From Escherichia phage phiSUSP1, in the sequence record KT454805: a DNA stretch of 64,000 nucleotides, one strand, 5' to 3'. The notes beneath the pieces are model-generated. The model searched no databases. It was given only the letters and a program-made list of their open reading frames with translations, and was not told the origin of the DNA. This document shows positions 2,769 to 63,578 of this stretch, piece after piece (position 1 is the stretch's first letter; each line of letters opens with the position of its first letter). The position numbers and the translations under genes are program-made.

Positions 2769-3868
2769 TATTCATAATCCCTAATAACGAGACCAACAGG
2801 GAACTGTAAAGACCCCTTACGAGTCATCTTCTGGAACTGAACTGTCAAAGGTTTCCCGATAAACTCTTCAGGATGTTCAGCAAGATACTGTTTCTTCTCG
2901 TGTGTAGTCTTCCATGAAACATCTACAAAGACGTTAGGAAGAGTCTCTACAACGAACTTACCATGACCACGCTTATCGGTCTTCACACCAGTAATTTTAA
3001 ACTCTTCAGTGTGCATCTTCTTGTGCTTAATCAAGAAGTATGAACGGTGACCACACTCGTAGAAAGATTCTTCAGAGATTGAACGGTACATTGCACCTTC
3101 AAACTTAGCTTCAACCCACTTATCATGAGCTTCATCAAACTCTTCCCAAGAATTTACATGGATAGTCTGTACAGGAACAACTCTACAGGTATCCCCAAGC
3201 TGAACGAGAGGTGAACTGTCAATAACTTCACGACGCTCAGGCCAAGATTTTGAATTGTCACAGATATCATACCAGTAGAATTTAAGAAGGTGACGGTCTG
3301 GATTGTCAGCATTCTTAATCATAGAGACAATATCTTCTAAGTCCCAACCATGAGCATAAATCTCACCATCAAAGTCTTCAACTTGTGGATGTAATTTAAG
3401 CAACAAAAGCAAATCTGGGATTAGTTCTGTTGGAACGTTGTAAACAGTATTCTCACGAGAATAAGCCGTGAAACTAACTGAATCAGCATTCTTTGAAATC
3501 CTACAACGGACACCATCAAGTTTTGGTTGAGCATCAGCAGGGAACTTCAGATACTTTGCATGGCTAACCTTTGCAGCATCATGAGCAAGCTGTACACCAA
3601 CCTTCTCAACACACTCTGCTTCAGATTTTGTGTAAGCGTAACCTTTACGGTCAACCTGTTTCTTGTACTTAGCAGCAACTTCAAAGAGAGCTTGCTGTTC
3701 AGCATTACGCTCATTCTTTTTACCGATGTTTTTCGGTTCTGCTGTGTACTCTTCAAACATCATCTTGCCATTTTCTTTACCGTAAGTTGTGACAACTTTA
3801 TCACCTACGGCAACACATGACCAGACGTTGAAAGAACCATCTTTATTTTGTTTGTACAGGATTGTCAT
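2768..3868 (-). CDS. ATP-dependent DNA ligase
   Basis: adenylation motif KLDGVR, DGEIY, EGAMY, FLIKHK; 366 aa. Confidence 0.85.
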   Translation of the reverse strand: MTILYKQNKDGSFNVWSCVAVGDKVVTTYGKENGKMMFEEYTAEPKNIGKKNERNAEQQALFEVAAKYKKQVDRKGYAYTKSEAECVEKVGVQLAHDAAKVSHAKYLKFPADAQPKLDGVRCRISKNADSVSFTAYSRENTVYNVPTELIPDLLLLLKLHPQVEDFDGEIYAHGWDLEDIVSMIKNADNPDRHLLKFYWYDICDNSKSWPERREVIDSSPLVQLGDTCRVVPVQTIHVNSWEEFDEAHDKWVEAKFEGAMYRSISEESFYECGHRSYFLIKHKKMHTEEFKITGVKTDKRGHGKFVVETLPNVFVDVSWKTTHEKKQYLAEHPEEFIGKPLTVQFQKMTRKGSLQFPVGLVIRDYE

Positions 3869-8254: not shown

Positions 8255-8677
8255 ATGCAGAGAATGTTTGTTCACCCAGACATAGCTGACTTCATGAGAG
8301 CTTTAAAAAAGTTGGAAGAACTTGACATTGCTGCTCAAAAGGAATACGCTTACCATCATCGTCGAATGGTTGATGTTCAACATGAGATTGAACTCTCCGA
8401 AGGCTACGATGAAAGAATGAAATGTTCAGTCTTTGAGCATATGAAGGAGATATCGGCTGAGAGGCGTAAAGCAAAAGATACACTCTTCTTGATAGATTCT
8501 TTAAAAAAGAAGTTGCAAAACGGAACAGACTTAGATAACCTAGCAACACTGATTAGCGATGTAGAAAGTTCATGGGATAGACATTACTTCCCAAGGTCTG
8601 AAAAAGTTCTTGACTTTTCCTCTACAGAGAGCTTAAAGTTATCACGACAAACACTTAACAAAATGAGAGAGAATTAA
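8255..8677 (+). CDS. hypothetical protein
   Basis: 140-aa ORF, first gene of plus-strand block. Confidence 0.4.
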   Translation: MQRMFVHPDIADFMRALKKLEELDIAAQKEYAYHHRRMVDVQHEIELSEGYDERMKCSVFEHMKEISAERRKAKDTLFLIDSLKKKLQNGTDLDNLATLISDVESSWDRHYFPRSEKVLDFSSTESLKLSRQTLNKMREN

Positions 8678-8678
8678 T

Positions 8679-9482
8679 ATGACTACTGTAAATGAAATGC
8701 TGGCCTCTAAAGGTATCGATAGCAACTTTATGCTGAACACTATTGAAAGCCTTGCTATCGTTATGCGTAGCAACACCTTCAGTTCACAAGTAATTCCTGA
8801 ATCTTATCAGGTTAACGCAGAGATTTCTGATGAGTCAGCATTTCGCTCACAGGTTGAACTGCTTCTGAATAACCGTCAACTGGCTCTGGCTTCAGTGGCT
8901 GTTGGTGTAGATGCCTTGGCTGGTTATGTCTTTGACAAGATGCAAACTGGCGACTACAAAGTTCTCTCTGAAGAAGAGAAAGAAGCACTGCTTGAGTTCA
9001 CTGAAGACGACACCTTCAACCTGATTATCAACTCAATTGCAAGCGTGATGGCTGTACTTGAGAAACGTGTTACAGAAAAACTCCCACACTATGAAAAACT
9101 TGATTGGGGTTTTGCAGATATCTTTGAGCGTTCACAGGAAATGGTGAAGCTGACTAAAGAGCAACTTCAAGAGGTTGTTGACAATGAAGCTGAACGTGGA
9201 ATTGATGAGATTCAGGTCAAACTGACCGCTCTGGTTCCTTCAATCATCACAGTGATGAGTATTCACGCTCTGTTCGAAGTTGCAGGTATGATTGATGCAC
9301 CTATTGAGTTTGTGGAGCAGATTGCTGGTAATGTAAGTGGTGAAGCACTGCGTGAAGTGATTATGCAAACTGGTGCGGCAGTTCTTCAAGACAAGATTGC
9401 CATCCACTTCGGTGATGAATTTGTAGCAACTATTCAGGCTCTGTCTGAAAAAGAAAAGCTTGATTCTACACAAATTCACTAA
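8679..9482 (+). CDS. hypothetical acidic protein
   Basis: 267-aa ORF, 1-nt gap to upstream gene. Confidence 0.4.
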   Translation: MTTVNEMLASKGIDSNFMLNTIESLAIVMRSNTFSSQVIPESYQVNAEISDESAFRSQVELLLNNRQLALASVAVGVDALAGYVFDKMQTGDYKVLSEEEKEALLEFTEDDTFNLIINSIASVMAVLEKRVTEKLPHYEKLDWGFADIFERSQEMVKLTKEQLQEVVDNEAERGIDEIQVKLTALVPSIITVMSIHALFEVAGMIDAPIEFVEQIAGNVSGEALREVIMQTGAAVLQDKIAIHFGDEFVATIQALSEKEKLDSTQIH

Positions 9483-10489: not shown

Positions 10490-12473
10490 AGGTCGTAAAT
10501 TGAAGGAAGCTGGTAATTTTGTTGGTCATTGTGCTTGCCCTAGATGTGGTTCATCAGATGCTGGTTCAATCTATCATCACGACGATGATTCTTATTCGAT
10601 GACTTGCTTTAGTTGCAACAAAGGTTTTCCAGAGTGGGATTTTGATAAAGGGCAAATTGTGAGTACTTATTCTACTGGTTCAGACAATAAAAATCGTACT
10701 TTCCGTGGTATGGATTTAGATGATGTAAAAGACAACCTTGAAGCAATGGATTTAAAAGACCGTAAGATTCCTGCAAAGGTTCTTGACCGTCTTGGTATCA
10801 AGGTTGATGTAGATGGTGAAGGTGAGATTGATGCACACTTTTACCCAACTTACAAGAAAGATGAAAACGGAAAGCTTGAGCATGTGGGTTATCGTGTTCG
10901 TCACCGTTATCCAGAAGACCATCCGAAAGAGCATCTTCGTGGTAAGTTGAAAGACTTCTCCGGTGGCGTAGGGGATATCAAAGGTGAACTGGCAATGTTC
11001 GGTTCGTGGATTGCTCCAGAAGGTGGTAACCGTCTATTCATCTGGGAAGGTGAGATGGAATGCGCTACAGCAATCTACATGACTTCTCTGGCAATTAAAG
11101 ATAAGTCTCGTCGTAAGAATTACTGCCACGTATCTGTTCCATCAGGTGCAAACATCAAGTCTATCAAAGACAACTATCAGTACATCACGTCATTTGATGA
11201 GATTTACCTGTGCTTTGATAACGATGAAGCAGGTGCAAAAGCCACTAAAGAGGCTGCTGGTATCCTTCCGATTGAGAAGGTTCGCTTATTCCAGTATCCA
11301 GAAGGTGTCAAAGACCTTAACGAATGGTGGACTAAGTTTTATAAAGAGAAAGATACAGTACTGGAAGGATTTAAACAGCGTATCTATAATGCACCTCGTT
11401 ACTGCCCTGCTGGTATCAAGAACTTCGCAGATGGTTTTGAGGCAATGAAGAATCGTGGTCAGATTCCACTGATTCCATTCCCAGAATCTTTCGGAGACTT
11501 GAACAGGCTGACTTATGGCGGTTATGGTCTAGGTGAGATTACAACTCTGGCAGCACCATCTTCAGTAGGTAAATCAGCTTACACTCGTGAAATGATTTAT
11601 ACTGCTTGGAAGGAAACTGATTACAATATCGGTGTGATTCCTGTAGAAGATACTTATGAAGAGTTAATGGAGATGCTTTGTGCGATTCACCTTAGCAAGC
11701 AGATTTCAGAGATTCCTTACGATGAACGTAATTGGGATGAAATCAAGGTTGCACATGCTGAGTTGTCTGCTGGTCGTCGTATTCACATCGTTGACCACCA
11801 AGGGGCAATCGACCAAGATAACCTGTTAGAGTTTGTTGACTATCTGGTTAACAGCTTAGACTGTAAGATTATTATTCTTGACCCTATCACACTGGCTCTG
11901 TCACGTTCTGATACGGATGAAGAAGAAGTCTTATCTGAACTGCTGCGTCGTTGCAAGCGTTACCAATATGCACAGGTAAACGTCTGTCACGTTCGTAAGA
12001 GTGCAGGTGGTCAGAAAGCTAACTCTGAAGGTGGTGATATTTCTGAAGAGGATATCAAGGGTTCTGGAGCATACTTCCAGATTTCCATGAACAACATTCT
12101 GTTAATGCGTAACAAGGTTGACCCAGACCCTGTGAAGAAAAACTTGACCAAAATCAAGTTAACTAAATGTCGTCGTCATGGTAAGTCAACTGGTATTGCT
12201 GGTCACACTTGGTATAATCCAGATACAGGCCGTCTTATCAAGGCTGCTGGTAGTGGTGTTGATATTGATGGTGCAGCAGAGAATATTCGTCAGCAGTTTG
12301 GTATTGGTGAAGCTGATGACCACTATGATGATTCTATGCCGCATTATGATGATGAAGTCTTTGACCGTGAGACTGGAGAGGTTTACACTCAAGAGCAACG
12401 TCAAAGTTCTACTATTCCACCAGTATTAAACGAAGACGGAGAAGATGATGACTGCCCGTTTGAAACTGACTGA
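10482..12473 (+). CDS. DNA primase-helicase (T7 gp4-like)
   Basis: N-terminal Cys4 zinc finger (CACPRCGS...CFSCNKG), TOPRIM-like region, Walker A GKSAYT and Walker B IIILDPIT; ATG at 10482 downstream of listed GTG. Confidence 0.85.
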   Translation: MSKGRKLKEAGNFVGHCACPRCGSSDAGSIYHHDDDSYSMTCFSCNKGFPEWDFDKGQIVSTYSTGSDNKNRTFRGMDLDDVKDNLEAMDLKDRKIPAKVLDRLGIKVDVDGEGEIDAHFYPTYKKDENGKLEHVGYRVRHRYPEDHPKEHLRGKLKDFSGGVGDIKGELAMFGSWIAPEGGNRLFIWEGEMECATAIYMTSLAIKDKSRRKNYCHVSVPSGANIKSIKDNYQYITSFDEIYLCFDNDEAGAKATKEAAGILPIEKVRLFQYPEGVKDLNEWWTKFYKEKDTVLEGFKQRIYNAPRYCPAGIKNFADGFEAMKNRGQIPLIPFPESFGDLNRLTYGGYGLGEITTLAAPSSVGKSAYTREMIYTAWKETDYNIGVIPVEDTYEELMEMLCAIHLSKQISEIPYDERNWDEIKVAHAELSAGRRIHIVDHQGAIDQDNLLEFVDYLVNSLDCKIIILDPITLALSRSDTDEEEVLSELLRRCKRYQYAQVNVCHVRKSAGGQKANSEGGDISEEDIKGSGAYFQISMNNILLMRNKVDPDPVKKNLTKIKLTKCRRHGKSTGIAGHTWYNPDTGRLIKAAGSGVDIDGAAENIRQQFGIGEADDHYDDSMPHYDDEVFDRETGEVYTQEQRQSSTIPPVLNEDGEDDDCPFETD

Positions 12474-56266: not shown

Positions 56267-57682
56267 ATGAGCGATTTATTTAAACATTCGCACCTCCATG
56301 CAGGGCGAACTGAAAATGGTGCTGTTAACCATACATCATCAATGTCTGCCTTGGTAGACTTCTATAAAGCTGCTGGCTCAAGCCGTGGCAATGTAGAGAT
56401 TCTCCCAGACTTGTTCTACAAAGCTTTGCGTGAGGATGTTGATGTAGCAGTTCGTATTTTACTGCATATGCGAGATGTACGAGAAGGTATGGGTGAGCGT
56501 AAAGCTTTCCGAACTGTCCTCTTACAAGCAATCGAAGATAACATTCTGGATTCTTTCCAAGTTCTTCGTATCATGGATAAGATTTCTGAATTAGGTCGTT
56601 TCGATGACTTCAAAATCTTCGTAGGTACTCGTTATGAGACAGATGCTTTCAAGCATTTAGAAGCAGCCTTGTTAGACCCTGATACAGCAGGTTTAGCAGC
56701 TAAGTGGTTACCACGAGTAAAACCACGCCACAAAAAGTTTGTAAAACGTTTCTGTAAGTTTGCAAACTTGAGTGAGAAAGAATACCGTACACTGTTATCA
56801 GCTTTGTCTGATACCGTTGAACAGAAAATCTCTACAAATAACTTTGGTGAGATTGACTACAGCAAGATTCCTTCACTGGCTGCTGCACGTTACCAAAAAC
56901 TGTTCAGCAAGAAAGACGGTGAACGTTATACAGCTTACGTTGAAGCTTTATCCAAAGGTGAGGCCAAGATTAATGCTGGTGCTGTGTACCCATACGATAT
57001 TCTGAAGTCCGTTAATCATGGTAAAGCAAGTGTTGCAAACGAACAGTGGAAAGCATTACCAAACTGGATGGCAGAAGGTGAAAACATTCTGTGCATGTCA
57101 GATGTATCAGCGTCTATGACTTGGCAGACATTTGGTTCTGTAACTGCTCTTGATATTGGCCTGTCTTTGGCGTTATATGTCTCAGAACGCAATACAGGGT
57201 GCTTTAAAGATGAGTTAATGGTTTACTCCACAAGACCTCACTTTATCACTCTGAGTGGTGATTTACAGACTCGTATGCGTCAAGTAATGAGTCATGTTGA
57301 GTATGGTTCAACAAACCTGCAAGCAGCATTTGACCGTATTCTTGAAATTGGTGTAAGAAATGGCTTGACTCAGGTAGCAATGCCAAGTAAGCTTATTATC
57401 TTCTCTGATATGGAGTTCAATCAGGTTGACGGTGCAAATGGTTGTACAAACTTCGAAGCAATTCGTAGTAAGTACGAAAAAGCTGGATACGAAATGCCAC
57501 AACTGGTATTCTGGTACTTAGCAAACCGTAATGGTACTTGCGAAGTGTCTGTTAAGGATAATGGTGTAGCAATGGTATCAGGTTTCTCTCCAGCCACTTT
57601 AAAAGCTCTGCTTGGTGGTGAGAAGTTTGACCCAATCAGCGTAATGCTCAAAGCAGTAATGATTGACCGTTACATCTGGTAA
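56267..57682 (+). CDS. Ro60-like protein (TROVE-like N-domain plus vWA domain with MIDAS)
   Basis: AVYPYDILKSVNHG, CMSDVSASM, LIIFSDMEFN, VSGFSPATLKAL align with human Ro60 RIHPFHILIALETY, AVDVSASM, FIVFTDNETF, MCGFDTGALDVI. Confidence 0.7.
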   Translation: MSDLFKHSHLHAGRTENGAVNHTSSMSALVDFYKAAGSSRGNVEILPDLFYKALREDVDVAVRILLHMRDVREGMGERKAFRTVLLQAIEDNILDSFQVLRIMDKISELGRFDDFKIFVGTRYETDAFKHLEAALLDPDTAGLAAKWLPRVKPRHKKFVKRFCKFANLSEKEYRTLLSALSDTVEQKISTNNFGEIDYSKIPSLAAARYQKLFSKKDGERYTAYVEALSKGEAKINAGAVYPYDILKSVNHGKASVANEQWKALPNWMAEGENILCMSDVSASMTWQTFGSVTALDIGLSLALYVSERNTGCFKDELMVYSTRPHFITLSGDLQTRMRQVMSHVEYGSTNLQAAFDRILEIGVRNGLTQVAMPSKLIIFSDMEFNQVDGANGCTNFEAIRSKYEKAGYEMPQLVFWYLANRNGTCEVSVKDNGVAMVSGFSPATLKALLGGEKFDPISVMLKAVMIDRYIW

Positions 57683-57848: not shown

Positions 57849-57925
57849 CTCCGTTTAGCTCAGTTTGGTAGAGTGCGCCGTTTGGGGCGGTGAGGTCGAA
57901 GGTTCAATCCCTTCAACGGAGACCA
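57849..57925 (+). tRNA. tRNA-Pro (anticodon TGG)
   Basis: acceptor CTCCGTT/AACGGAG, T-arm GGTTCAATCC, loop TTTGGGG; CCA encoded. Confidence 0.75.
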
Positions 57926-57932
57926 AATTAAT

Positions 57933-58010
57933 GTTCCAGTAGACAAATTGGTAAAGTCACCACACTTTCAATGTGGAGTTTTGAGGGTTCAAGTCCCTTC
58001 TGGAACGCCA
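57933..58010 (+). tRNA. tRNA-Glu (anticodon TTC)
   Basis: acceptor GTTCCAG/CTGGAAC, T-arm GAGGGTTCAAGTCCCTT, loop CTTTCAA. Confidence 0.75.
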
Positions 58011-58017
58011 AATTTGA

Positions 58018-58082
58018 CAGAAGACCAAGTACAGCAAATAACTTTACTTTTCGCGCATAGAAAACTTAAAAGTTTGGTCTGG
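58018..58082 (+). ncRNA. inverted-repeat-bounded inter-tRNA element E1
   Basis: CAGAAGACCAA...TTGGTCTGG, 7-bp closing stem AGACCAA/TTGGTCT. Confidence 0.4.
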
Positions 58083-58093
58083 TCATAAAAGTT

Positions 58094-58170
58094 CGCGGGT
58101 ATAGAGAAAGGGCGTCTCACATGTCTCATTAGCATGGTATCGGCAGGTTCGACTCCTGCACCCGCCTCCA
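58094..58170 (+). tRNA. tRNA-Met/Ile2 (anticodon CAT)
   Basis: T-arm GCAGGTTCGACTCCTGC, loop CTCATTA, 3' ACCCGCC-T-CCA; 5' boundary uncertain. Confidence 0.6.
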
Positions 58171-58176
58171 AATTTG

Positions 58177-58239
58177 CAGAAGACCGTTTACAGCAATCTC
58201 AAAAATTTTTATCGGAAAAAATGAAAAGATACGGTCTGG
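58177..58239 (+). ncRNA. inverted-repeat-bounded inter-tRNA element E2
   Basis: CAGAAGACCGT...ACGGTCTGG, 7-bp closing stem. Confidence 0.4.
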
Positions 58240-58252
58240 CAATACTAAACAT

Positions 58253-58329
58253 GGTGAGGAAGCACATAAGGCATGTGCGGTCGGCTGTTAACCGAATGGT
58301 ATAGGGTTCGAATCCCTAACTCACCGCCA
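58253..58329 (+). tRNA. tRNA-Asn (anticodon GTT)
   Basis: D-arm GCAC-ATAAGGCAT-GTGC, loop CTGTTAA, T-arm TAGGGTTCGAATCCCTA, CCA encoded. Confidence 0.75.
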
Positions 58330-58399
58330 AGATTTGGGAGAGAAGCGTAATGCTCACCGATTTGTAAGGTGTAAGTCCTTAGCCTGAATAGAATAAAAT

Positions 58400-58487
58400 G
58401 CGTCGTTATCCCGTAGATGGAAGCGGTGGTGACTGTAAATCACTTGTCATTATGACTCGGTAGGTTCGACTCCTTCACGGCGCACCA
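58400..58487 (+). tRNA. tRNA-Tyr (anticodon GTA), class II
   Basis: 88 nt with long variable arm; loop CTGTAAA; acceptor GCGTCGT/ACGGCGC. Confidence 0.7.
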
Positions 58488-58493
58488 AATAAA

Positions 58494-58571
58494 GGTTATG
58501 TAGTTTAATCTGGTTAAAATACCTCACTGTCACTGAGGAAGATGAGGGTTCAAATCCCTTCGTAACCGCCA
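58494..58571 (+). tRNA. tRNA-Asp (anticodon GTC)
   Basis: anticodon arm CCTCA-CTGTCAC-TGAGG; T-arm GAGGGTTCAAATCCCTT. Confidence 0.75.
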
Positions 58572-58632
58572 ATTTTGAGAGGGCTTTCTAGCCCCTCCCT
58601 TAAAGAGTTCTTACGAGTATTCTTTAAAGGAG

Positions 58633-58709
58633 CAGAAGACCAAATTCAGCAAGCCAACTTAAAAAATTTCAAGCCAATTTAATTTTGAAAAATTTAAAAC
58701 TTGGTCTGG
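58633..58709 (+). ncRNA. inverted-repeat-bounded inter-tRNA element E3
   Basis: CAGAAGACCAA...TTGGTCTGG closing stem. Confidence 0.4.
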
Positions 58710-58722
58710 CTCAACAAATTTA

Positions 58723-58849
58723 CAGAAGACCGTTTACAGCAAGTATAAAACAATCTATTTCTCTGGTAAAGAAAAGGAGAAGGTTCGATTCCTTCACACG
58801 TTACGGCGTGTTGGTGTAATGGTAGCACTTAAGATAAACAACGGTCTGG
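58723..58849 (+). ncRNA. structured element E4 with tRNA-like T-arm (Y-RNA-like candidate)
   Basis: closing stem AGACCGT/ACGGTCT; internal hairpins GAAGG-TTCGATT-CCTTC (T-arm-like), ACACG-TTACGG-CGTGT, GTGT-AATGGTA-GCAC (D-arm-like); no anticodon arm. Confidence 0.4.
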
Positions 58850-58998
58850 TAATCCTCTTTGCAGTGACTTATGGAGCTAAATGTCGTCCCATGAGTGCCG
58901 ATGAATTTCCTTAGCATGATTCTAGATTAGCTTAATAGGAAATGACTCTACAAACCCTTTAGCAAGGTTTGCGTAGGTTACTGCAAAGATGATTTAAT

Positions 58999-59074
58999 GG
59001 GGGTGTAGCAGAAAGGTGATGCGGCAGACTTTTAATCTGACAGGCGACGGGTTCGAATCCCTCCACTCCCACCA
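58999..59074 (+). tRNA. tRNA-Lys (anticodon TTT)
   Basis: acceptor GGGGGTG/CACTCCC, loop CTTTTAA, T-arm GACGGGTTCGAATCCC. Confidence 0.7.
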
Positions 59075-59078
59075 ATAT

Positions 59079-59155
59079 GGTTCAGTCGCAGATAAGGTAA
59101 TGCAAGGGTTTCATAAGCCCTATGAATGTGGGTTCGAATCCCATCTGAACCTCCA
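59079..59155 (+). tRNA. tRNA-Met/Ile2 (anticodon CAT), second copy
   Basis: acceptor GGTTCAG/CTGAACC, loop TTCATAA, T-arm GTGGGTTCGAATCCCAT. Confidence 0.7.
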
Positions 59156-59156
59156 A

Positions 59157-59232
59157 GCTGGTATAGTTAAGAAGGTTATAACACTCCCCTGATAAGGGAA
59201 CATCGGTGGTTCGATTCCACCTACCAGTACCA
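59157..59232 (+). tRNA. tRNA-Ile (anticodon GAT)
   Basis: loop CTGATAA, T-arm GGTGGTTCGATTCCACC, acceptor GCTGGTA/TACCAGT. Confidence 0.7.
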
Positions 59233-59247
59233 ATTTCAATAAAGTTG

Positions 59248-59276
59248 TTGACATGGAGATGTGACTACTTTATAGT
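59248..59276 (+). promoter_or_regulatory. sigma70-like promoter inside tRNA cluster
   Basis: TTGACA-N17-TATAGT. Confidence 0.6.
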
Positions 59277-59509
59277 AGCCTTAGTTTTCGTTAGCGTAGC
59301 GTCTATTTTGCAAACTTAAAAATAAATGCAAACGATAATGCTTTTCTGGCAGTAGCTTAATAGGCTAAACACCAGTGAGGTCTTCCAATTCCTCATCAAA
59401 GAATTTGGCGTACTCGCCCACGGTATGATTAATAAGGTGGGCAACATTCTAAAGGGTATCCCGTATGGGGCTTGGCTTAAATGCAATGAGTACCCTTTAA
59501 AATGTTAAT

Positions 59510-59586
59510 GCACCCTTAGTTCAATTGGATAGAGCAAGTGCCTTCTAAGCACTGAGTTACAGGTTCGAGTCCTGTAGGGTGTGCCA
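59510..59586 (+). tRNA. tRNA-Arg (anticodon TCT)
   Basis: anticodon arm AGTGC-CTTCTAA-GCACT, T-arm ACAGGTTCGAGTCCTGT. Confidence 0.75.
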
Positions 59587-59593
59587 GTTTAAT

Positions 59594-59715
59594 GGTCAAG
59601 ACAACACTAGTAAGCCATCTGGATACATGTTAACAGATGTACGAAAGTCGGAAAGTTGCTGAAGGTTAGCTACCTTCGAGAGTAAGTAGGTTCGACTCCT
59701 ACCTTGACTGCCAAA
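59594..59715 (+). ncRNA. atypical tRNA-like element (possible pseudogene or insertion-containing tRNA)
   Basis: perfect T-arm GTAGG-TTCGACT-CCTAC and 3' CTTGACT-G-CCA pairing with GGTCAAG ~120 nt upstream; no canonical D-arm. Confidence 0.3.
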
Positions 59716-59849
59716 TAGTTAGCAGATTACTTAGACGACCTTAGCGGGTCTCCGTGTTGATTCAGATGAGTCAACTTCATAAGGAGGTGGTCTGTATCTC
59801 ATGTTTTCCAGAACATGTAAATAATCTGAGAAGAGGCTTGACAGTGTTG

Positions 59850-59878
59850 TGACAATACGGTAAGCTTCGAATTATAGT
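59850..59878 (+). promoter_or_regulatory. sigma70-like promoter
   Basis: TGACAA-N17-TATAGT upstream of tRNA-Trp and HNH gene. Confidence 0.5.
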
Positions 59879-59884
59879 GTTAAT

Positions 59885-59955
59885 AGGGGTGAGCTAAGGC
59901 AGCAATAGAGTCTCCAAAATTCTTGATTAGAGTTCGAATCTCTACACCCCTGCCA
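59885..59955 (+). tRNA. tRNA-Trp (anticodon CCA), short D-arm
   Basis: acceptor AGGGGTG/CACCCCT, loop CTCCAAA, T-arm TAGAGTTCGAATCTCTA; 71 nt. Confidence 0.6.
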
Positions 59956-59969
59956 GAATAGGTACTTGT

Positions 59970-60374
59970 ATGAAACTTTGTAGAAAATGCTCACAAGAAA
60001 AACCTTTAAGTTGTTTTCATAAGCGTGGTAATGGATACCAGTCAGTATGCAAAGATTGCAAATCCAAATACTCTTCTAAGAAGTATCAAGAAGACCCAAC
60101 TTATAAAGCTAAAAGGAAAATTAGGGCGGTAGCTGACAGAAAAAGAAACAGAGAGTTTCTTAACCGATACAAAAGAATCTGCAAATGCAGAGTTTGTGGT
60201 GAATCTGAACCAGTAGCATTAGACTTCCACCATTTAGACCCAAATGAAAAAGACTTTGAACCTAGCAATTTAAAGACTTACTCTAGAGGGACTATTAAGA
60301 GAGAAGTTAGAAAATGTGTTGTACTGTGTTCTAACTGTCATAGGAAAGTTCATGCAGGACTGTTAGAGGTTTAA
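59970..60374 (+). CDS. HNH endonuclease inside tRNA cluster
   Basis: Cys pairs CRKC...CKDC...CRVC and DFHHLDPN...LCSNCHRKVH HNH motif. Confidence 0.7.
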   Translation: MKLCRKCSQEKPLSCFHKRGNGYQSVCKDCKSKYSSKKYQEDPTYKAKRKIRAVADRKRNREFLNRYKRICKCRVCGESEPVALDFHHLDPNEKDFEPSNLKTYSRGTIKREVRKCVVLCSNCHRKVHAGLLEV

Positions 60375-60388
60375 CAGTCTTATTAGGG

Positions 60389-60475
60389 GTAGATAGCGGC
60401 TAATGGAAGCCAAATTGTCTTGAAAACAATTGCCATTGTAGTGATACGGTGAGGGTTCGACTCCTTTATCTACCG
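60389..60475 (+). tRNA. tRNA-Ser (anticodon TGA), class II
   Basis: 87 nt with long variable arm; anticodon arm ATTGT-CTTGAAA-ACAAT; CCA not encoded. Confidence 0.65.
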
Positions 60476-60628
60476 CCTAATGAGATTTAAGCCCACGCTC
60501 TGGTACAGCGTTCGGTTTCCCTCGTGTATTGTCGTACACGCACAACAAAGCACCTAGTAGGTGTCACGGAGAAGAGATAATATCAAGCTCTCCAAAGGTT
60601 CTAGTCACCGGATTAAACAAGACTATGC

Positions 60629-60648
60629 AAAGACCAGTTAGGTCTTTT
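60629..60648 (+). terminator. rho-independent terminator
   Basis: AAGACC-AGTTA-GGTCTT followed by TTT; ends a ~150-nt structured non-tRNA segment. Confidence 0.5.
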
Positions 60649-60718
60649 TAGAGAATTGTTAAGGCATTTGATACCATTGTTGCTTTGGCGTCTTAGCAGT
60701 TCTCTACAAAGATTTAAT

Positions 60719-60796
60719 GGGAGATTGACGGTAATTGGTAAACCTACCATCCTTAGAAGTTGGTGTTTGAGGGTTCGAATCCCTTGTCTCCTACCA
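60719..60796 (+). tRNA. tRNA with anticodon read as TAG, class I
   Basis: acceptor GGGAGAT/GTCTCCT-A-CCA, T-arm GAGGGTTCGAATCCCTT; anticodon arm CCATC-CTTAGAA-GTTGG is a 1-nt variant of the Val tRNA arm. Confidence 0.5.
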
Positions 60797-60803
60797 AATT
60801 AAT

Positions 60804-60879
60804 GCAGGTGTAGCAAAATGGTTATGCGGCTGACTCTTAATCAGTAAGACGATGGGTTCAATTCCCTCCACCTGTACCA
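60804..60879 (+). tRNA. tRNA-Lys (anticodon CTT)
   Basis: paralog of tRNA-Lys(TTT); loop CTCTTAA with compensatory stem change. Confidence 0.6.
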
Positions 60880-60885
60880 AATATT

Positions 60886-60961
60886 GGGGTTGTAGTTTAA
60901 ATGGTTAAAACATAAGTTTTGCAAACTTAAGTACAGGGTTCGATTCCCTGCTTCTCCACCA
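60886..60961 (+). tRNA. tRNA-Cys-like (anticodon GCA), imperfect acceptor stem
   Basis: anticodon arm AAGTT-TTGCAAA-AACTT, T-arm CAGGGTTCGATTCCCTG; two U-U mismatches in acceptor; possible pseudogene. Confidence 0.4.
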
Positions 60962-60967
60962 ATTAGT

Positions 60968-61042
60968 GCATCCATAGTTTAAACGGGAAAATTACAGTCT
61001 TCCAAACTGAGGTTGAGGGTTCGATTCCCTCTGGATGCTCCA
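60968..61042 (+). tRNA. tRNA-Gly (anticodon TCC)
   Basis: acceptor GCATCCA/TGGATGC perfect; loop CTTCCAA. Confidence 0.75.
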
Positions 61043-61049
61043 AATTAAT

Positions 61050-61125
61050 GCTCCTATCGTATAATTGGCTATTACGGTTGCCTTGTAAGCAACTTATCAG
61101 GGTTCGAATCCTTGTGGGAGCACCA
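61050..61125 (+). tRNA. tRNA-Thr (anticodon TGT)
   Basis: anticodon arm GTTGC-CTTGTAA-GCAAC; acceptor GCTCCTA/TGGGAGC. Confidence 0.75.
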
Positions 61126-61221
61126 ATTCAGAGGTCGAGTGAAAGACCGCTTGAGTCAACTGAAGACCGTAACAAATTCCACGGAGTTGAGTTAGCGGCA
61201 CAACTTCAGACCTCTTTTCAT

Positions 61222-61296
61222 ACTCGCTTAGTTTATACGGTAAAGCCCCATCCTTACAAGTTGGTGAAGAAGGTTCAAGTCCTTCAGCGAGTACCA
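61222..61296 (+). tRNA. tRNA-Val (anticodon TAC)
   Basis: loop CTTACAA as in E. coli tRNA-Val; acceptor ACTCGCT/AGCGAGT; T-arm GAAGGTTCAAGTCCTTC. Confidence 0.7.
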
Positions 61297-61298
61297 AT

Positions 61299-61376
61299 GT
61301 TCCAGTATCCCAATTGGCAGAGGATGCAAGCTCAAACCTTGTATTAGTGACGGTTCGAATCCGTCTTGGAACACCA
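61299..61376 (+). tRNA. tRNA with anticodon read as CAA, class I
   Basis: acceptor GTTCCAG/TTGGAAC-A-CCA; anticodon arm GCAAG-CTCAAAC-CTTGT; T-arm GACGGTTCGAATCCGTC. Confidence 0.5.
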
Positions 61377-61392
61377 ATTTTAGGAGATTCCT

Positions 61393-61605
61393 ATGAAGCC
61401 TTATGGTAGACACGGTAAAGTTGAAATTGCAAGTTGTGGTTGCTGTGCTTCTCACGATGGTGAAGAAGATTACTACAAGTGGCGTACAGACCATCGTAGA
61501 CGCTTTCTCAGAAGAGATAAGAAGAGAGCTAGACAGGAATCTCAAAAGAACATTGCAGAATTAGTTCAAATGGATAGAGCAGCAGCCTACGAAGTTGCTT
61601 GTTAG
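61393..61605 (+). CDS. small basic Cys-containing protein; 3' end overlaps tRNA-Arg
   Basis: AGGAG RBS 7 nt before ATG; 70 aa; last ~50 nt overlap tRNA 61555-61631. Confidence 0.25.
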   Translation: MKPYGRHGKVEIASCGCCASHDGEEDYYKWRTDHRRRFLRRDKKRARQESQKNIAELVQMDRAAAYEVAC

Positions 61606-61631
61606 GGGTTCGAATCCCTTATTCTGCACCA
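61555..61631 (+). tRNA. tRNA-Arg (anticodon ACG)
   Basis: acceptor GCAGAAT/ATTCTGC perfect; anticodon arm GCAGC-CTACGAA-GTTGC. Confidence 0.7.
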
Positions 61632-61650
61632 ATTTAAAGAGGCTATTTAA

Positions 61651-62208
61651 ATGAGATATTTGAAGTATGCTTCATGGATTTTCCTAGCTTTGCTAGAGCC
61701 ATTTGCAGCAATCTTAGCAGTAATCTTAGCACCCTTTGTGGTTCCATTCTACAGTGAGAGGAAAGGTCACTTACCTTTTGGATTCAGATGGATGGAAACT
61801 TATGATAACCCGATTGACGGTGACAAAGGTCACGTTGAGCGATGGGCTAAGATTCGAAAGATTGGTAAGCTCGGTGTTTATATGCAGAGAGTTGGATGGC
61901 TCTGGAGAAACAAAGCTTATAACTTCTCTTACCATGTATTAGGAAGAGATGTAAAAGATGTTACTAAGTGGAAAGGTAATATCAACGTAAGTTCTAACCC
62001 TGAAGATAAACAGACAGGTTATCTCCTGATGTGGAACAGTAATGCTTGGGGTTTATTCGCTTTTATCCCGTCAATTAAAATCTTTGGTAAACAATTTTAC
62101 TGGAGAATTTATGTTGGTTGGAAACTTAAAAGTGTTGTCCCAGAAGAAAGAGCATTTTCAAGGGAAAGAATTATGTTGGCATTCTTTATTCATCCACTAA
62201 GAAAGTAA
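61651..62208 (+). CDS. hypothetical protein with N-terminal hydrophobic helix
   Basis: AAGAGG RBS; WIFLALLEPFAAILAVILAPFVV; 185 aa inside tRNA cluster. Confidence 0.4.
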   Translation: MRYLKYASWIFLALLEPFAAILAVILAPFVVPFYSERKGHLPFGFRWMETYDNPIDGDKGHVERWAKIRKIGKLGVYMQRVGWLWRNKAYNFSYHVLGRDVKDVTKWKGNINVSSNPEDKQTGYLLMWNSNAWGLFAFIPSIKIFGKQFYWRIYVGWKLKSVVPEERAFSRERIMLAFFIHPLRK

Positions 62209-62216
62209 AGATTTAA

Positions 62217-62292
62217 AGGGGATTAGTTTACAAGGTTAAAACCTCGGTCTTTGAAATCGAAGAAGTTGGTTCAATTCCAACATCCCCCGCCA
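62217..62292 (+). tRNA. tRNA-Gln (anticodon TTG)
   Basis: anticodon arm TCGGT-CTTTGAA-ATCGA; T-arm GTTGGTTCAATTCCAAC; A1-C72 mismatch. Confidence 0.65.
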
Positions 62293-62294
62293 AT

Positions 62295-62373
62295 GCTCCA
62301 TTACTCCAATTGGCAGAGAGGCCAGACTTAAAATCTGTGTTATGTATCGGTTCGAATCCGATATGGAGTACCA
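62295..62373 (+). tRNA. tRNA with anticodon read as TAA
   Basis: acceptor GCTCCAT/ATGGAGT-A-CCA; loop CTTAAAA in a Lys-tRNA-like arm; 7-nt variable loop. Confidence 0.5.
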
Positions 62374-62380
62374 AATTAAT

Positions 62381-62456
62381 AGCAGTGTAGCATAACTGGC
62401 AATGCTCCAGCCTCTGAAGCTGAAAGATTAAGGTTCAAATCCTTACGCTGCTGCCA
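62381..62456 (+). tRNA. tRNA-Gln (anticodon CTG)
   Basis: anticodon arm CAGC-CTCTGAA-GCTG; T-arm TAAGGTTCAAATCCTTA. Confidence 0.65.
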
Positions 62457-62487
62457 CTTCTAAGGGTTCTTACGAGAGTCCTTACAT

Positions 62488-62564
62488 GTGTCCTTATCAT
62501 AAATGGATAATGACCCATGCTGTGAACATGGTCTATACGGGTTCGATTCCCGTAGGTCACCCCA
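62488..62564 (+). tRNA. tRNA-His (anticodon GTG)
   Basis: D-arm TCAT-AAATGGATA-ATGA, anticodon arm CCATG-CTGTGAA-CATGG, discriminator C73. Confidence 0.7.
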
Positions 62565-62572
62565 AATTTAAT

Positions 62573-62648
62573 GGGTTAAGTAGCTTATATGGTTAAAGCG
62601 CGTGTCTGAAAAACATGAGAAGAGGGTTCAAATCCCACTAACCCGCCA
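62573..62648 (+). tRNA. tRNA-Phe (anticodon GAA)
   Basis: anticodon arm CGTGT-CTGAAAA-ACATG; acceptor GGGTTAA/CTAACCC. Confidence 0.6.
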
Positions 62649-62665
62649 ATTTCAAAAGGTGCTTA

Positions 62666-63400
62666 ATGAAAGAGATGACAGAACAAGGTAAAGAGATTTT
62701 TAATCTCCTGAAATCCGGTAACGGGTTTTCTAACCCTCTTATTACTGGTGCAGCAATCCTTGGTGGCACAATTGCCGCTTCTACTTCATTAGTAAGCTCT
62801 ATTAGCTCGGTATCAGACCCTACAGTAAAAGATAAACTTATTGCTGCTGGTTTGACTACAGCCTTGTTAAGTAGCTTCTCAACGAGCCTTGGAAGCACTA
62901 CAACGACAACTAACACTTTGACTCAATACGGGCAGAAGTCTGTAGATGAGTTCTCATCACGTATGCAGGTAGCTAAAGGTTACTCTAACGTTATGGGTGC
63001 AGCAGGAGAACAAGTTGGTTGTACACCGTTTAGTGGAATCATGGGAGTAGCTACAGAGTACGGTCAAAAAGCTATGGATTTGATTAACACCTCCATAGAC
63101 ACTGTGAATGGCGTTCTAAGTGATTTGCAAGATGCAATCAACAAAGGACTAGATACTATATCTCCCTTAGCCTCACAAGCCGTTACAGCGATTAATCAGG
63201 GCATTGCTAAGATTACTGCATATGCTAATGAGGTCACTCAGATGATTGCAGATGAAGCAGCGTTAATTGCTGATTACTTGAAAACGAATATCAATGGTTT
63301 CCTTGCAGGTATCTTACCAGACTGGTTTGATGATGCTTGTAAAACTGGCGTGATTGATTCAATCGCAACTCCAGAGATGAAGGATGCCTTGAATAAATAA
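62666..63400 (+). CDS. hypothetical Ser/Thr/Ala-rich protein
   Basis: 244-aa ORF between tRNA-Phe and tRNA-Ser. Confidence 0.4.
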   Translation: MKEMTEQGKEIFNLLKSGNGFSNPLITGAAILGGTIAASTSLVSSISSVSDPTVKDKLIAAGLTTALLSSFSTSLGSTTTTTNTLTQYGQKSVDEFSSRMQVAKGYSNVMGAAGEQVGCTPFSGIMGVATEYGQKAMDLINTSIDTVNGVLSDLQDAINKGLDTISPLASQAVTAINQGIAKITAYANEVTQMIADEAALIADYLKTNINGFLAGILPDWFDDACKTGVIDSIATPEMKDALNK

Positions 63401-63402
63401 TT

Positions 63403-63495
63403 GGAAGATTAACCCTAAAAGGTAAGGGAACAGTTTGCTAAACTGTCAGTAACCGAGAAATCGGCGTACCAGTTCAAGTCTGGTATCTTCCTCCA
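63403..63495 (+). tRNA. tRNA-Ser (anticodon GCT), class II
   Basis: 93 nt; acceptor GGAAGAT/ATCTTCC perfect; anticodon arm ACAGT-TTGCTAA-ACTGT; long variable arm. Confidence 0.75.
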
Positions 63496-63503
63496 ATTTA
63501 ATG

Positions 63504-63578
63504 CGTCGATGACAGAAATGGCTATGTGCCTGTCTGCAAAACAGGATTATGAGGGTTCGACTCCCTTTCGACGCTCCA
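63504..63578 (+). tRNA. tRNA-Cys (anticodon GCA)
   Basis: acceptor GCGTCGA/TCGACGC perfect; anticodon arm CCTGT-CTGCAAA-ACAGG. Confidence 0.75.

Follow-up and report, generated by a model that had tools for sequence, protein, structure and literature searches.

Three short-variable-loop tRNA genes with leucine anticodons in the tRNA cluster of Escherichia phage phiSUSP1

Introduction

Textbooks describe a long variable arm as a constant part of bacterial leucine transfer RNAs (tRNALeu). The tRNA cluster of Escherichia phage phiSUSP1 raises the question of whether a tRNA without this arm can be a leucine tRNA, as three of its genes combine leucine anticodons with short variable loops. The three armless genes make up the entire tRNALeu complement of a well-studied group of Escherichia coli and Salmonella phages, and the sole bacterial exception that we found in the literature searched is one Streptomyces tRNA, reportedly not charged by the E. 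coli leucyl-tRNA synthetase (LeuRS). We analyzed a 64,000-nt stretch of phiSUSP1 (KT454805; G+C content, 39.4%), called the window below, in which the three genes are as follows:

60719-60796, + strand: tRNALeu(UAG), short-arm (type I) candidate, found with ARAGORN and Rfam; anticodon at 60754-60756
61299-61376, + strand: tRNALeu(CAA), type I, found with ARAGORN and Rfam; anticodon at 61333-61335
62295-62373, + strand: tRNALeu(UAA), type I, found with ARAGORN and Rfam; anticodon at 62329-62331

The original prediction for this locus offered two readings, unusual short-arm leucine tRNAs or anticodon-shifted paralogs of the valine, glutamate, and lysine tRNAs. We found that the first is backed by three tRNA finders, conservation, covariation, and the set of E. 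coli LeuRS identity elements, while the second is disfavored by whole-molecule kinship, similarity to the class II tRNALeu core, and the scores of a covariance model. We estimate at about 75% the probability that all three genes encode natural type I (short-variable-loop) tRNALeu that would be charged by the host LeuRS.

Results

ARAGORN placed tRNAs with anticodons UAG, CAA, and UAA exactly where the original prediction had located them. In the ARAGORN folds, all three have acceptor stems of 7 bp and T arms of 5 bp with TTCGAAT loops. The folds also bear out the predicted short variable loops, which are 5 nt in tRNALeu(UAG), 6 nt in tRNALeu(CAA), and 7 nt in tRNALeu(UAA), as well as the predicted A73 discriminator, which in each gene is followed by an encoded CCA. 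The Rfam tRNA model (RF00005; gathering score, 29 bits) gave 40.0, 44.0, and 47.5 bits, respectively, and the tRNAscan-SE annotation of CHB7, a 96%-identical phage, lists the same three Leu anticodons. ARAGORN, Rfam, and the CHB7 annotation thus agree, and they returned neither other anticodons nor pseudogene calls, two of the outcomes named beforehand as counting against the prediction. For near-identical homologs in Shigella phage Sf14, the tRNAscan-SE isotype models put Leu first, with scores of 67.4, 49.1, and 60.2, although the lead is narrow for the TAG homolog, with Ile2 at 65.7 (PMC12482277). Related genomes have two or three annotated tRNA-Leu genes (three in CHB7), and no class II tRNALeu was found anywhere in the 64-kb window. 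The three Leu tRNA genes are real and are already labeled tRNA-Leu in hundreds of records.

The genes lie in a 5.8-kb tRNA region that is 94 to 97% identical to that of Escherichia phages EP1, SUSP2, mistaenkt, and CHB7 (Ounavirinae, Suspvirus) and 80 to 90% identical to that of most other Felix-O1-like phages (249/353 records). The cluster and the genes that serve here as class II comparators are as follows:

57849-63578, all on the + strand: tRNA cluster, with 25 tRNAs called by default ARAGORN and 27 with relaxed settings
60388-60477, + strand: tRNASer(UGA), comparator; long variable arm kept, with a 4-bp stem (ARAGORN)
63403-63495, + strand: tRNASer(GCU), comparator; long variable arm kept, with a 4-bp stem (ARAGORN)
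58400-58487, + strand: tRNATyr(GUA), class II comparator; 88 nt, long variable region kept (relaxed ARAGORN)

With the relaxed-setting calls included, the cluster covers all 20 amino acids. The tRNATyr(GUA) gene is overlooked by default ARAGORN and falls under the Rfam threshold at 22.8 bits; it is annotated as tRNA-Tyr in CHB7.

We next compared the three tRNAs with the known determinants of leucylation. In E. coli, leucine identity is ascribed to A73, the A15-U48 pair, G18G19, A20a, and D/T-loop contacts, and LeuRS needs neither the anticodon nor the long arm, with armless variants staying active (PMC9976931). U8:A14 and A14 have been named for other systems, the former for the LeuRS of Aquifex and the latter for that of mitochondria (PMC9976931). 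All three phage tRNAs contain A73, U8:A14, A15:U48, G18G19, A20a, U54:A58, G18:U55, and G19:C56, the assignment of these positions in tRNALeu(UAG) hinging on the ARAGORN register of its D arm. For the host, we parsed the five E. coli K-12 tRNALeu isoacceptors and the Val, Lys, and Glu tRNAs domain by domain. The K-12 tRNALeu genes (leuZ, leuX, leuW, leuU, and leuQPV) have U8 and G9, a D arm with a 3-bp stem and the 11-nt loop RAATYGGTAGA, a variable arm of 13 to 15 nt, and A73, and they share with the phage tRNAs A73, U8, A14A15, UUGG, A20a, U48, and the T loop. The same D-stem and D-loop lengths, 3 bp and 11 nt, recur in phage tRNALeu(CAA) and tRNALeu(UAA), both with the loop CAATTGGCAGA and with variable loops of 6 and 7 nt, respectively, that end in U48; written out, the D arm is TGGYG-RAATYGGTAGA-CRC in the host tRNAs versus TAYYC-CAATTGGCAGA-GRR in these two. 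The E. coli Val and Lys D arms have a 4-bp stem and an 8-nt loop. The anticodons UAA, CAA, and UAG are identical in the two sets, and a G1.U72 pair, found in phage tRNALeu(UAA) and tRNALeu(UAG), also occurs in leuZ and leuU. We considered G1.U72 as a Leu signature and did not use it: it is present in 56% of short Leu, 31% of long Leu, and 13% of other phage tRNAs, but is frequent in Glu, Ile, Val, and Lys tRNAs.

The phage tRNAs also differ from those of the host. Like class II tRNALeu, all three have A73 and a Leu anticodon with A35, but none has a variable arm longer than 10 nt with a stem, and tRNALeu(CAA) and tRNALeu(UAA) have the class-I-type core bases A9 and C13 in place of G9 and a purine at position 13, bases that phage class II tRNALeu have in 98% and 96% of cases, respectively. 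In the anticodon loop, all three have C32 where the host has U32, and tRNALeu(UAG) has A37A38 instead of G37U38. The loop is CTTAAAA in tRNALeu(UAA), with A36A37A38 intact, and CTCAAAC in tRNALeu(CAA), which has C38. The A36A37A38 motif is required for formation of i6A37 itself. It is also a determinant for TrmL, alongside prior i6A37 (PMC9976931). The lack of G37 in tRNALeu(UAG) and the C38 of tRNALeu(CAA) may alter the m1G37 and i6A37 modifications. When tRNALeu(UAA) was compared by blastn with 5,426 E. coli genomes, nothing matched; these genomes thus contain neither a detectable host donor nor a prophage copy of this gene.

A73, A15:U48, G18G19, A20a, and the D-loop length are kept in hundreds of short Leu tRNAs at frequencies like those in class II tRNALeu; a pure decoy would have no need of these positions, which LeuRS reads. 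These frequencies make it unlikely that the tRNAs are made and adopt a tRNA-like fold but are charged poorly or not at all by the host LeuRS, with some other role, for example as decoys or substitutes that blunt tRNA-directed nucleases or toxins. Such a role would fit the inactivity of E. coli LeuRS on the Streptomyces type I tRNALeu (PMC6614811), the proposal that phage tRNA clusters and bacterial tRNA arrays are antidefense devices (PMC10264068, PMC12803027), and anticodon loops unlike those of the host, with C32 in all three tRNAs and A37A38 in tRNALeu(UAG) (see also PMC12482277). However, the encoded CCA and the acceptor stems, intact with compensatory changes, point to aminoacylation, and a tRNA that escapes a nuclease but still decodes would agree with leucine charging instead of competing with it as an explanation.

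Short Leu tRNAs with the same anticodons are present in Erwinia phage phiEa104 (Ounavirinae), Aeromonas phage Akh-2 (Demerecviridae), and Lactobacillus phage LpeD (Herelleviridae), and the T5 congener FFH1 also has short Leu tRNAs, namely, a type I tRNALeu(UAG) and a tRNALeu(UAA). A search pattern consisting of an AATTGG D loop, a YTTAAAA anticodon loop, a canonical T loop, and type I spacing matched at least 120 contigs in IMG/VR. When the spacing was open to both types, 21 of the 120 phage tRNALeu(UAA) matches listed were short (~17%), an estimate that depends on the pattern and comes from a sample that was not dereplicated. In ARAGORN calls on 224 phage loci (5 annotated regions and 219 IMG/VR stretches), Leu tRNAs were short in 193 cases and long in 151, Ser tRNAs short in 3 and long in 114, and Tyr tRNAs short in 0 and long in 45. 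The 3 short Ser tRNAs are odd ARAGORN calls, one of them in T5.

The leucine identity elements are enriched in this larger set. Among 138 unique short Leu tRNAs from phage contigs, A73 was present in 93% (56% of other class I tRNAs), A14A15 with U48 in 86% (33%), and an 11-nt D loop in 60% (5%). The 61 short Leu tRNAs whose anticodons lie outside the search pattern had A73 in 57 cases and AA/U48 in 53. With the anticodon and variable loop removed, 105/138 short Leu tRNAs had a class II tRNALeu as a closer relative than any of the 1090 non-Leu phage tRNAs, compared to 3 to 14% of controls; in the pattern-unselected subset, this was so for 22/61, compared to 0 to 7% of controls. Position 9 is A in 73% of short Leu tRNAs versus G in 98% of long ones, and position 13 is C or U in 78% versus a purine in 96%. 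These short-Leu values are typical of class I tRNAs, so the type is a class I core with Leu identity elements rather than a fresh deletion. We also considered the FFH1 type I tRNALeu(UAG) as a deletion derivative of the T5 class II tRNALeu(UAG) and rejected this origin, since the two do not align as close relatives; the change is thus a replacement. We found no prior description of phage short-arm tRNALeu in the literature searched, a coverage outside which most subscription journals lie. We regard the type as known but little noticed, and the loss of the arm from Leu tRNAs with its retention in Ser and Tyr tRNAs, across phages and arrays, as the more interesting result.

A scan of bacterial genomes, one per species, identified at least 120 contigs with short-arm tRNALeu(UAA)-type genes; the statement in the original prediction that bacterial tRNALeu are class II was thus too general. 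About half of the bacterial matches listed lie in tRNA arrays, which hold as many as 38 tRNAs per 8 kb. The others are stand-alone genes from actinobacteria, picocyanobacteria, planctomycetes, and acidobacteria, and these genes have a highly conserved common sequence (GCCCCC.TAGCCCAATTGGCAGAGGC...). Over 120 bacterial loci, arrays and stand-alone genes combined, Leu tRNAs were short in 198/206 cases, Ser tRNAs long in 47/50, and Tyr tRNAs long in 32/33. Armless tRNALeu is unusual by textbook standards and is not unique, being common in phages and present in many bacteria. The genera with stand-alone type I tRNALeu(UAA) genes include Corynebacterium, Mycolicibacterium, Nocardia, Rhodococcus, Gordonia, Streptomyces, and Actinomadura. 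In cyanobacterial and other tRNA arrays, the Leu tRNAs are nearly all short.

We built a covariance model, R1, only from 47 stand-alone bacterial chromosomal type I tRNALeu(UAA) genes. The top two R1 matches in the window were tRNALeu(CAA) at 73.1 bits and tRNALeu(UAA) at 72.8 bits, a lead of 14 bits over every other window tRNA, the next being Glu at 58.6 and Thr at 55.0. The model ranked tRNALeu(CAA) first even though its own anticodon is UAA. Judged by these scores, tRNALeu(CAA) and tRNALeu(UAA) are members of a recognizable type I tRNALeu family. In phiEa104 and LpeD, all short Leu tRNAs scored above all non-Leu tRNAs (LpeD TAG, 78.8 bits). The two short Leu tRNAs of FFH1 ranked first and second, the TAG gene barely so (63.0 versus 61.1 bits for Glu), and in Akh-2 the TAA and TAG genes exceeded the non-Leu tRNAs while the CAA gene was slightly above Met (54.7 versus 52.5 bits).

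The reading of the three genes as shifted copies rests on local resemblances to other tRNAs of the cluster, two of which are as follows:

61222-61296, + strand: tRNAVal(UAC); its 17-nt anticodon arm equals that of tRNALeu(UAG) except at nucleotide 36
57933-58010, + strand: tRNAGlu(UUC); acceptor 5' strand GTTCCAG as in tRNALeu(CAA), discriminator G73

Under this reading, anticodon-shifted copies of tRNAVal, tRNAGlu, or tRNALys are still charged by the corresponding synthetases, and Leu codons would be partly recoded in infection. The resemblances themselves were correctly noted in the original prediction: the tRNALeu(UAG) arm CCATC-CTTAGAA-GTTGG and the tRNAVal(UAC) arm CCATC-CTTACAA-GTTGG have nucleotide 36 as their sole difference, and the acceptor strand GTTCCAG is common to tRNALeu(CAA) and tRNAGlu(UUC). 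The third, a Lys-like anticodon arm in tRNALeu(UAA), held in part, since its CAGA/TCTG core is common to tRNALys(UUU), but its CCAGA strand also occurs in E. coli tRNALeu(UAG) and so is not specific to Lys. In phage contigs that have both genes, short Leu(TAG) and Val(TAC) agreed at 8 or more of 10 anticodon-stem bases in 4 of 15 cases, compared to 3% of control pairs.

Over their whole length, however, tRNALeu(CAA) and tRNALeu(UAA) are closest to each other, forming a mutual best match within the cluster at 74%, and their R1 scores of about 73 bits compare with 58.6 for Glu, 41.5 and 38.6 for the cluster Lys tRNAs, and 38.5 for Val. Within the cluster, tRNALeu(UAG) is closest over its whole length to tRNAArg(ACG) (71%) and matches Val at 65%. 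When the anticodon and variable loop were left out of the comparison, each of the three CHB7 copies was nearer to class II tRNALeu than to the 1090 non-Leu phage tRNAs. The valyl-, glutamyl-, and lysyl-tRNA synthetases depend on anticodon bases that are absent here (PMC9976931), tRNAGlu has G73 where tRNALeu(CAA) has A73, and conservation in more than 250 phages would be difficult to explain if every Leu codon family were systematically mistranslated. We therefore consider shifted charging very improbable. Three other pairs in the cluster agree at 9 of 10 anticodon-stem bases, and a GAGGG/CCCTT T stem is common to several of its tRNAs; we attribute the Val and Glu resemblances to such general sharing of stems within the cluster.

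Some further observations concern tRNAVal and tRNAGlu. The anticodon stems of Leu(TAG) (60747-60763) and Val(TAC) (61248-61264) are alike throughout, including a U30.U40 mismatch, and the FFH1 Val(TAC) and Leu(TAG) stems have the same 5' strand, CCGTC (genes at 8327-8400 and 8997-9073 of the FFH1 stretch), a sharing that suggests gene conversion or common constraint. We rejected concerted evolution of these two anticodon arms as a general pattern, as the likeness was seen in only 4/15 contigs and other pairs reach 9/10; we do not count the likeness as evidence for Val identity. The phage tRNAGlu(UUC) has a Leu-like D arm with a 3-bp stem, GAC-AAATTGGTAAA-GTC, and tRNAGlu is the next-best R1 match in the window (58.6 bits), FFH1 (61.1), and T5 (56.0).

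To examine conservation and covariation, we aligned 139 short Leu tRNAs: 3 from the window, 9 from a set of three annotated phages, and 127 from contigs in IMG/VR. Over the 138 distinct sequences, the cloverleaf pairs in 97.9% of the alignment cells, and 18 of its 19 pairs have changes on both sides. The covariation score was 0.99, compared to 0.22 for shuffled alignments and 0.10 to 0.16 when the partners were slid. T8, A14, G18, and the T-loop bases are invariant, and A15, U16, U17, G19, U48, and A73 are conserved in at least 90% of the sequences. Across phage records, the tRNALeu(UAA) gene has at least 99% identity in 214/262 and the tRNALeu(CAA) gene in 158/290. Identical copies (100%) of these enterobacterial-phage tRNALeu genes also occur in GU169904.1, deposited as "Staphylococcus phage SA1," which suggests that this record is a chimeric or contaminated assembly.

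These data leave little room for decaying pseudogenes or chance tRNA-like sequences with a Leu label drawn only from the anticodon triplet. Decay would be expected to bring lost pairing, lost tertiary bases, and relaxed conservation, whereas pairing stands at 97.9% and tRNALeu(CAA) and tRNALeu(UAA) have at least 99% identity in most carriers. The genes are near-identical over hundreds of genomes with diverged flanks, compensatory changes occur in all four stems, the bases of tertiary interactions are invariant, and unrelated phage families also have short tRNAs with these three anticodons. Set against this are Rfam scores of 40 to 47.5 bits, low in the range of the cluster (most others, 53 to 68), the label "tRNA-Pseudo-TAG" on the TAG homolog in one relative's record, and weak thermodynamic folds. 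We regard decay or chance as extremely unlikely.

The most divergent of the three is tRNALeu(UAG). Its D arm is irregular, with a 3-nt connector, a GGT/ACC stem, and the loop AATTGGTAA; within it the D-loop core AATTGGTA is the same as in the other two, and G9 is present. It is more variable across phages than tRNALeu(UAA) and tRNALeu(CAA), although the CHB7 copy is 100% identical to that in the window, and homologs were found in 353 phage records, those of T5-like phages being about 84% identical to it. In FFH1, the homolog has a regular D arm of the Leu type and reaches 63.0 bits with R1. By sequence, tRNALeu(UAG) appears to belong to a more divergent enterobacterial-phage lineage with FFH1 as a member that has a regular Leu D arm.

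Discussion

Taken together, these sequence features suggest that tRNALeu(CAA) and tRNALeu(UAA) are, with high probability, natural type I tRNALeu charged by the host LeuRS; for tRNALeu(UAG) the same assignment is favored by a modest margin of confidence. The caution in the original prediction, that charging identity is not obvious, was in part justified for tRNALeu(UAG). Under the proposed explanation, the host LeuRS ignores the anticodon and the long arm, so that the three tRNAs would be leucine charged during infection. The UAA and CAA tRNAs would read UUA and UUG, and the UAG tRNA would read CUA and CUG and possibly all CUN codons. The arm would be missing from the phage tRNALeu because nothing selects for it there, and retained in the phage Ser and Tyr tRNAs, whose synthetases use it. 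The genes would be part of a widespread, horizontally exchanged family of armless tRNALeu found in phage clusters, bacterial arrays, and some chromosomes.

Several observations weigh against this explanation. E. coli LeuRS did not charge the natural Streptomyces coelicolor type I tRNALeu(CAA) and has been described as a type II-only enzyme (Fan et al. 2019, PMC6614811). Charging by an enterobacterial enzyme is thus not to be assumed, although the Streptomyces result may not transfer, since A73 is no identity element in that system. In tRNALeu(UAG), there is a U30.U40 mismatch in the anticodon stem, the whole of which is common to tRNAVal, position 37 is A where host CUN-reading tRNALeu have G, and R1 gave 48.6 bits, which is rank 8 among the window tRNAs and no separation from the others. 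In tRNALeu(CAA), C38 disrupts A36A37A38. The margins in the core-similarity test of the CHB7 copies were small (0.69 versus 0.67, 0.70 versus 0.67, and 0.73 versus 0.68). Finally, single-sequence thermodynamic folds were weak, with z-scores of -0.3, -1.8, and -1.6, and only tRNALeu(CAA) of the three had a near-cloverleaf minimum-energy fold; since thermodynamic folding was uninformative, we relied on covariation instead.

Codon use bears on what these tRNAs might do. In the 41 long open reading frames (ORFs) of the window, Leu codons are TTA in 19%, TTG in 17%, CTT in 27%, CTC in 6%, CTA in 8%, and CTG in 23% of cases. CUG makes up about half of E. coli Leu codons, and the E. coli UAA, CAA, and UAG Leu isoacceptors are single-copy minor species. 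In the E. coli regions that we examined, leuZ, leuX, and leuW are single, and the CAG gene is present in three copies. Relative to CUG, the codons UUA, UUG, and CUA thus seem to be in heavier use in the phage than in E. coli. The three anticodons would fit a role in codon compensation and also one in the replacement of host tRNAs lost in infection.

The closest known counterpart is the S. coelicolor type I tRNALeu(CAA) (PMC6614811), which, like the phage tRNAs, has a Leu anticodon, a short variable loop, and U8:A14, and which coexists in one compartment with class II tRNALeu and a single LeuRS, likewise the situation here. In S. coelicolor, A73 was reported to be no identity element (PMC6614811), whereas it is conserved in the phage tRNAs. 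The latter further differ in having a D arm that copies that of E. coli tRNALeu, in being phage borne, and in forming a three-anticodon set. Human and other metazoan mitochondrial tRNALeu(UUR) also has a short variable loop and A73, with A14 as an identity element (PMC9976931), but it has a degenerate, floppy core and a dedicated LeuRS, while the phage tRNAs have canonical D- and T-loop elements. Engineered or selected armless variants of E. coli tRNALeu in which A73 and the D/T-loop contacts are kept are still substrates of E. coli LeuRS (Asahara 1998 and Larkin 2002, via PMC9976931). The logic is the same here, but those variants are laboratory constructs, and the phage genes are natural and conserved. 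Among phages, T5 tRNALeu(UAG) and FFH1 tRNALeu(UAG) are both cluster genes adjoining tRNAAla(UGC), and the FFH1 gene is 84% identical to that of phiSUSP1. The T5 gene is class II, 85 nt long (positions 11625-11709 of its stretch), while FFH1, in the same genus Tequintavirus, has an unrelated type I gene at the syntenic spot (8997-9073). The record of the T5 tRNALeu(UAG) states that its amber-anticodon version suppresses.

If the tRNAs are charged in vivo, as the conserved identity elements suggest, then enterobacterial LeuRS uses natural type I substrates, and the rules established in vitro, in which the arm is dispensable for Leu and needed for Ser and Tyr, are visible as a natural experiment. 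The genes are relevant to tRNA annotation, as some records label them pseudogenes or "undetermined," and to the design of orthogonal or minimal tRNALeu scaffolds. A more speculative possibility, which we think improbable, is that loss of the arm is adaptive. Here, a mobile armless tRNALeu lineage, spread over Ounavirinae, T5-like phages, Herelleviridae, and bacterial arrays, would be fully charged by LeuRS while escaping a host factor. That factor, for example a nuclease, a toxin, or a modification-dependent checkpoint, would recognize tRNALeu by its class II shape or by an anticodon loop of the host type. Full charging would contradict the view of E. coli LeuRS as a type II-only enzyme.

Additional features of the locus

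Two further features of the cluster are as follows:

59885-59955, + strand: tRNATrp(CCA), 71 nt, with a reduced D arm (relaxed ARAGORN; Rfam, 32.6 bits)
59849-59878, + strand: sigma-70-like promoter match, GTGACA-18-TATAGT (consensus match only)

The promoter match is the nearest upstream candidate for the part of the cluster that contains the Leu tRNAs. Promoter-like sites were no richer than in shuffled sequences, with 9 found versus 11.5 expected.

A tRNA-like sequence of about 124 nt at 59590-59713 has a 7-bp acceptor stem (GGTCAAG/CTTGACT), an encoded CCA, and a T arm (GTAGG-TTCGACT-CCTAC), with about 70 nt inserted mid-sequence. The intron mode of ARAGORN forces a Leu(tag)-with-intron call onto it, and it recalls the "tRNA-like stable RNAs" annotated in T5.

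The spacers contain four copies of a 28-nt motif, CAAATTTRCAGAAGACCNNNTWCAGCAA, at 58010-58037, 58169-58196, 58625-58652, and 58715-58742. Three of the four begin inside the 3' terminus of a tRNA (Glu, Met), the tRNA-like 58625 region being excepted. Each copy is followed, 50 to 130 nt on, by a conserved ...GGTCTGG... element able to pair with AGACC; these partners lie at 58060-58082, 58231-58246, 58687-58709, and 58841-58856. The motifs may serve as processing signals or belong to a small spacer RNA that is mobile or structured.

The ORF directly upstream of the cluster (56267-57682) matches DUF2828 and DUF7788, and two ORFs among the tRNAs (61651-62208 and 62666-63400) match DUF7338 and DUF7217. 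A Cys-rich ORF of 134 aa between the Trp and Ser(TGA) genes (59970-60374) has no Pfam match. At the corresponding place in CHB7, but after Ser(TGA), there is a PD-(D/E)XK endonuclease ORF (positions 2807-3148 of the CHB7 stretch), and other relatives have HNH homing endonucleases annotated within the cluster; the nuclease cargo of the cluster thus appears to be variable. A small ORF at 61394-61561 overlaps the 5' end of tRNAArg(ACG) (61555-61631), and this ORF call may be spurious; CHB7 and the SUSP phages have it listed as a hypothetical protein.

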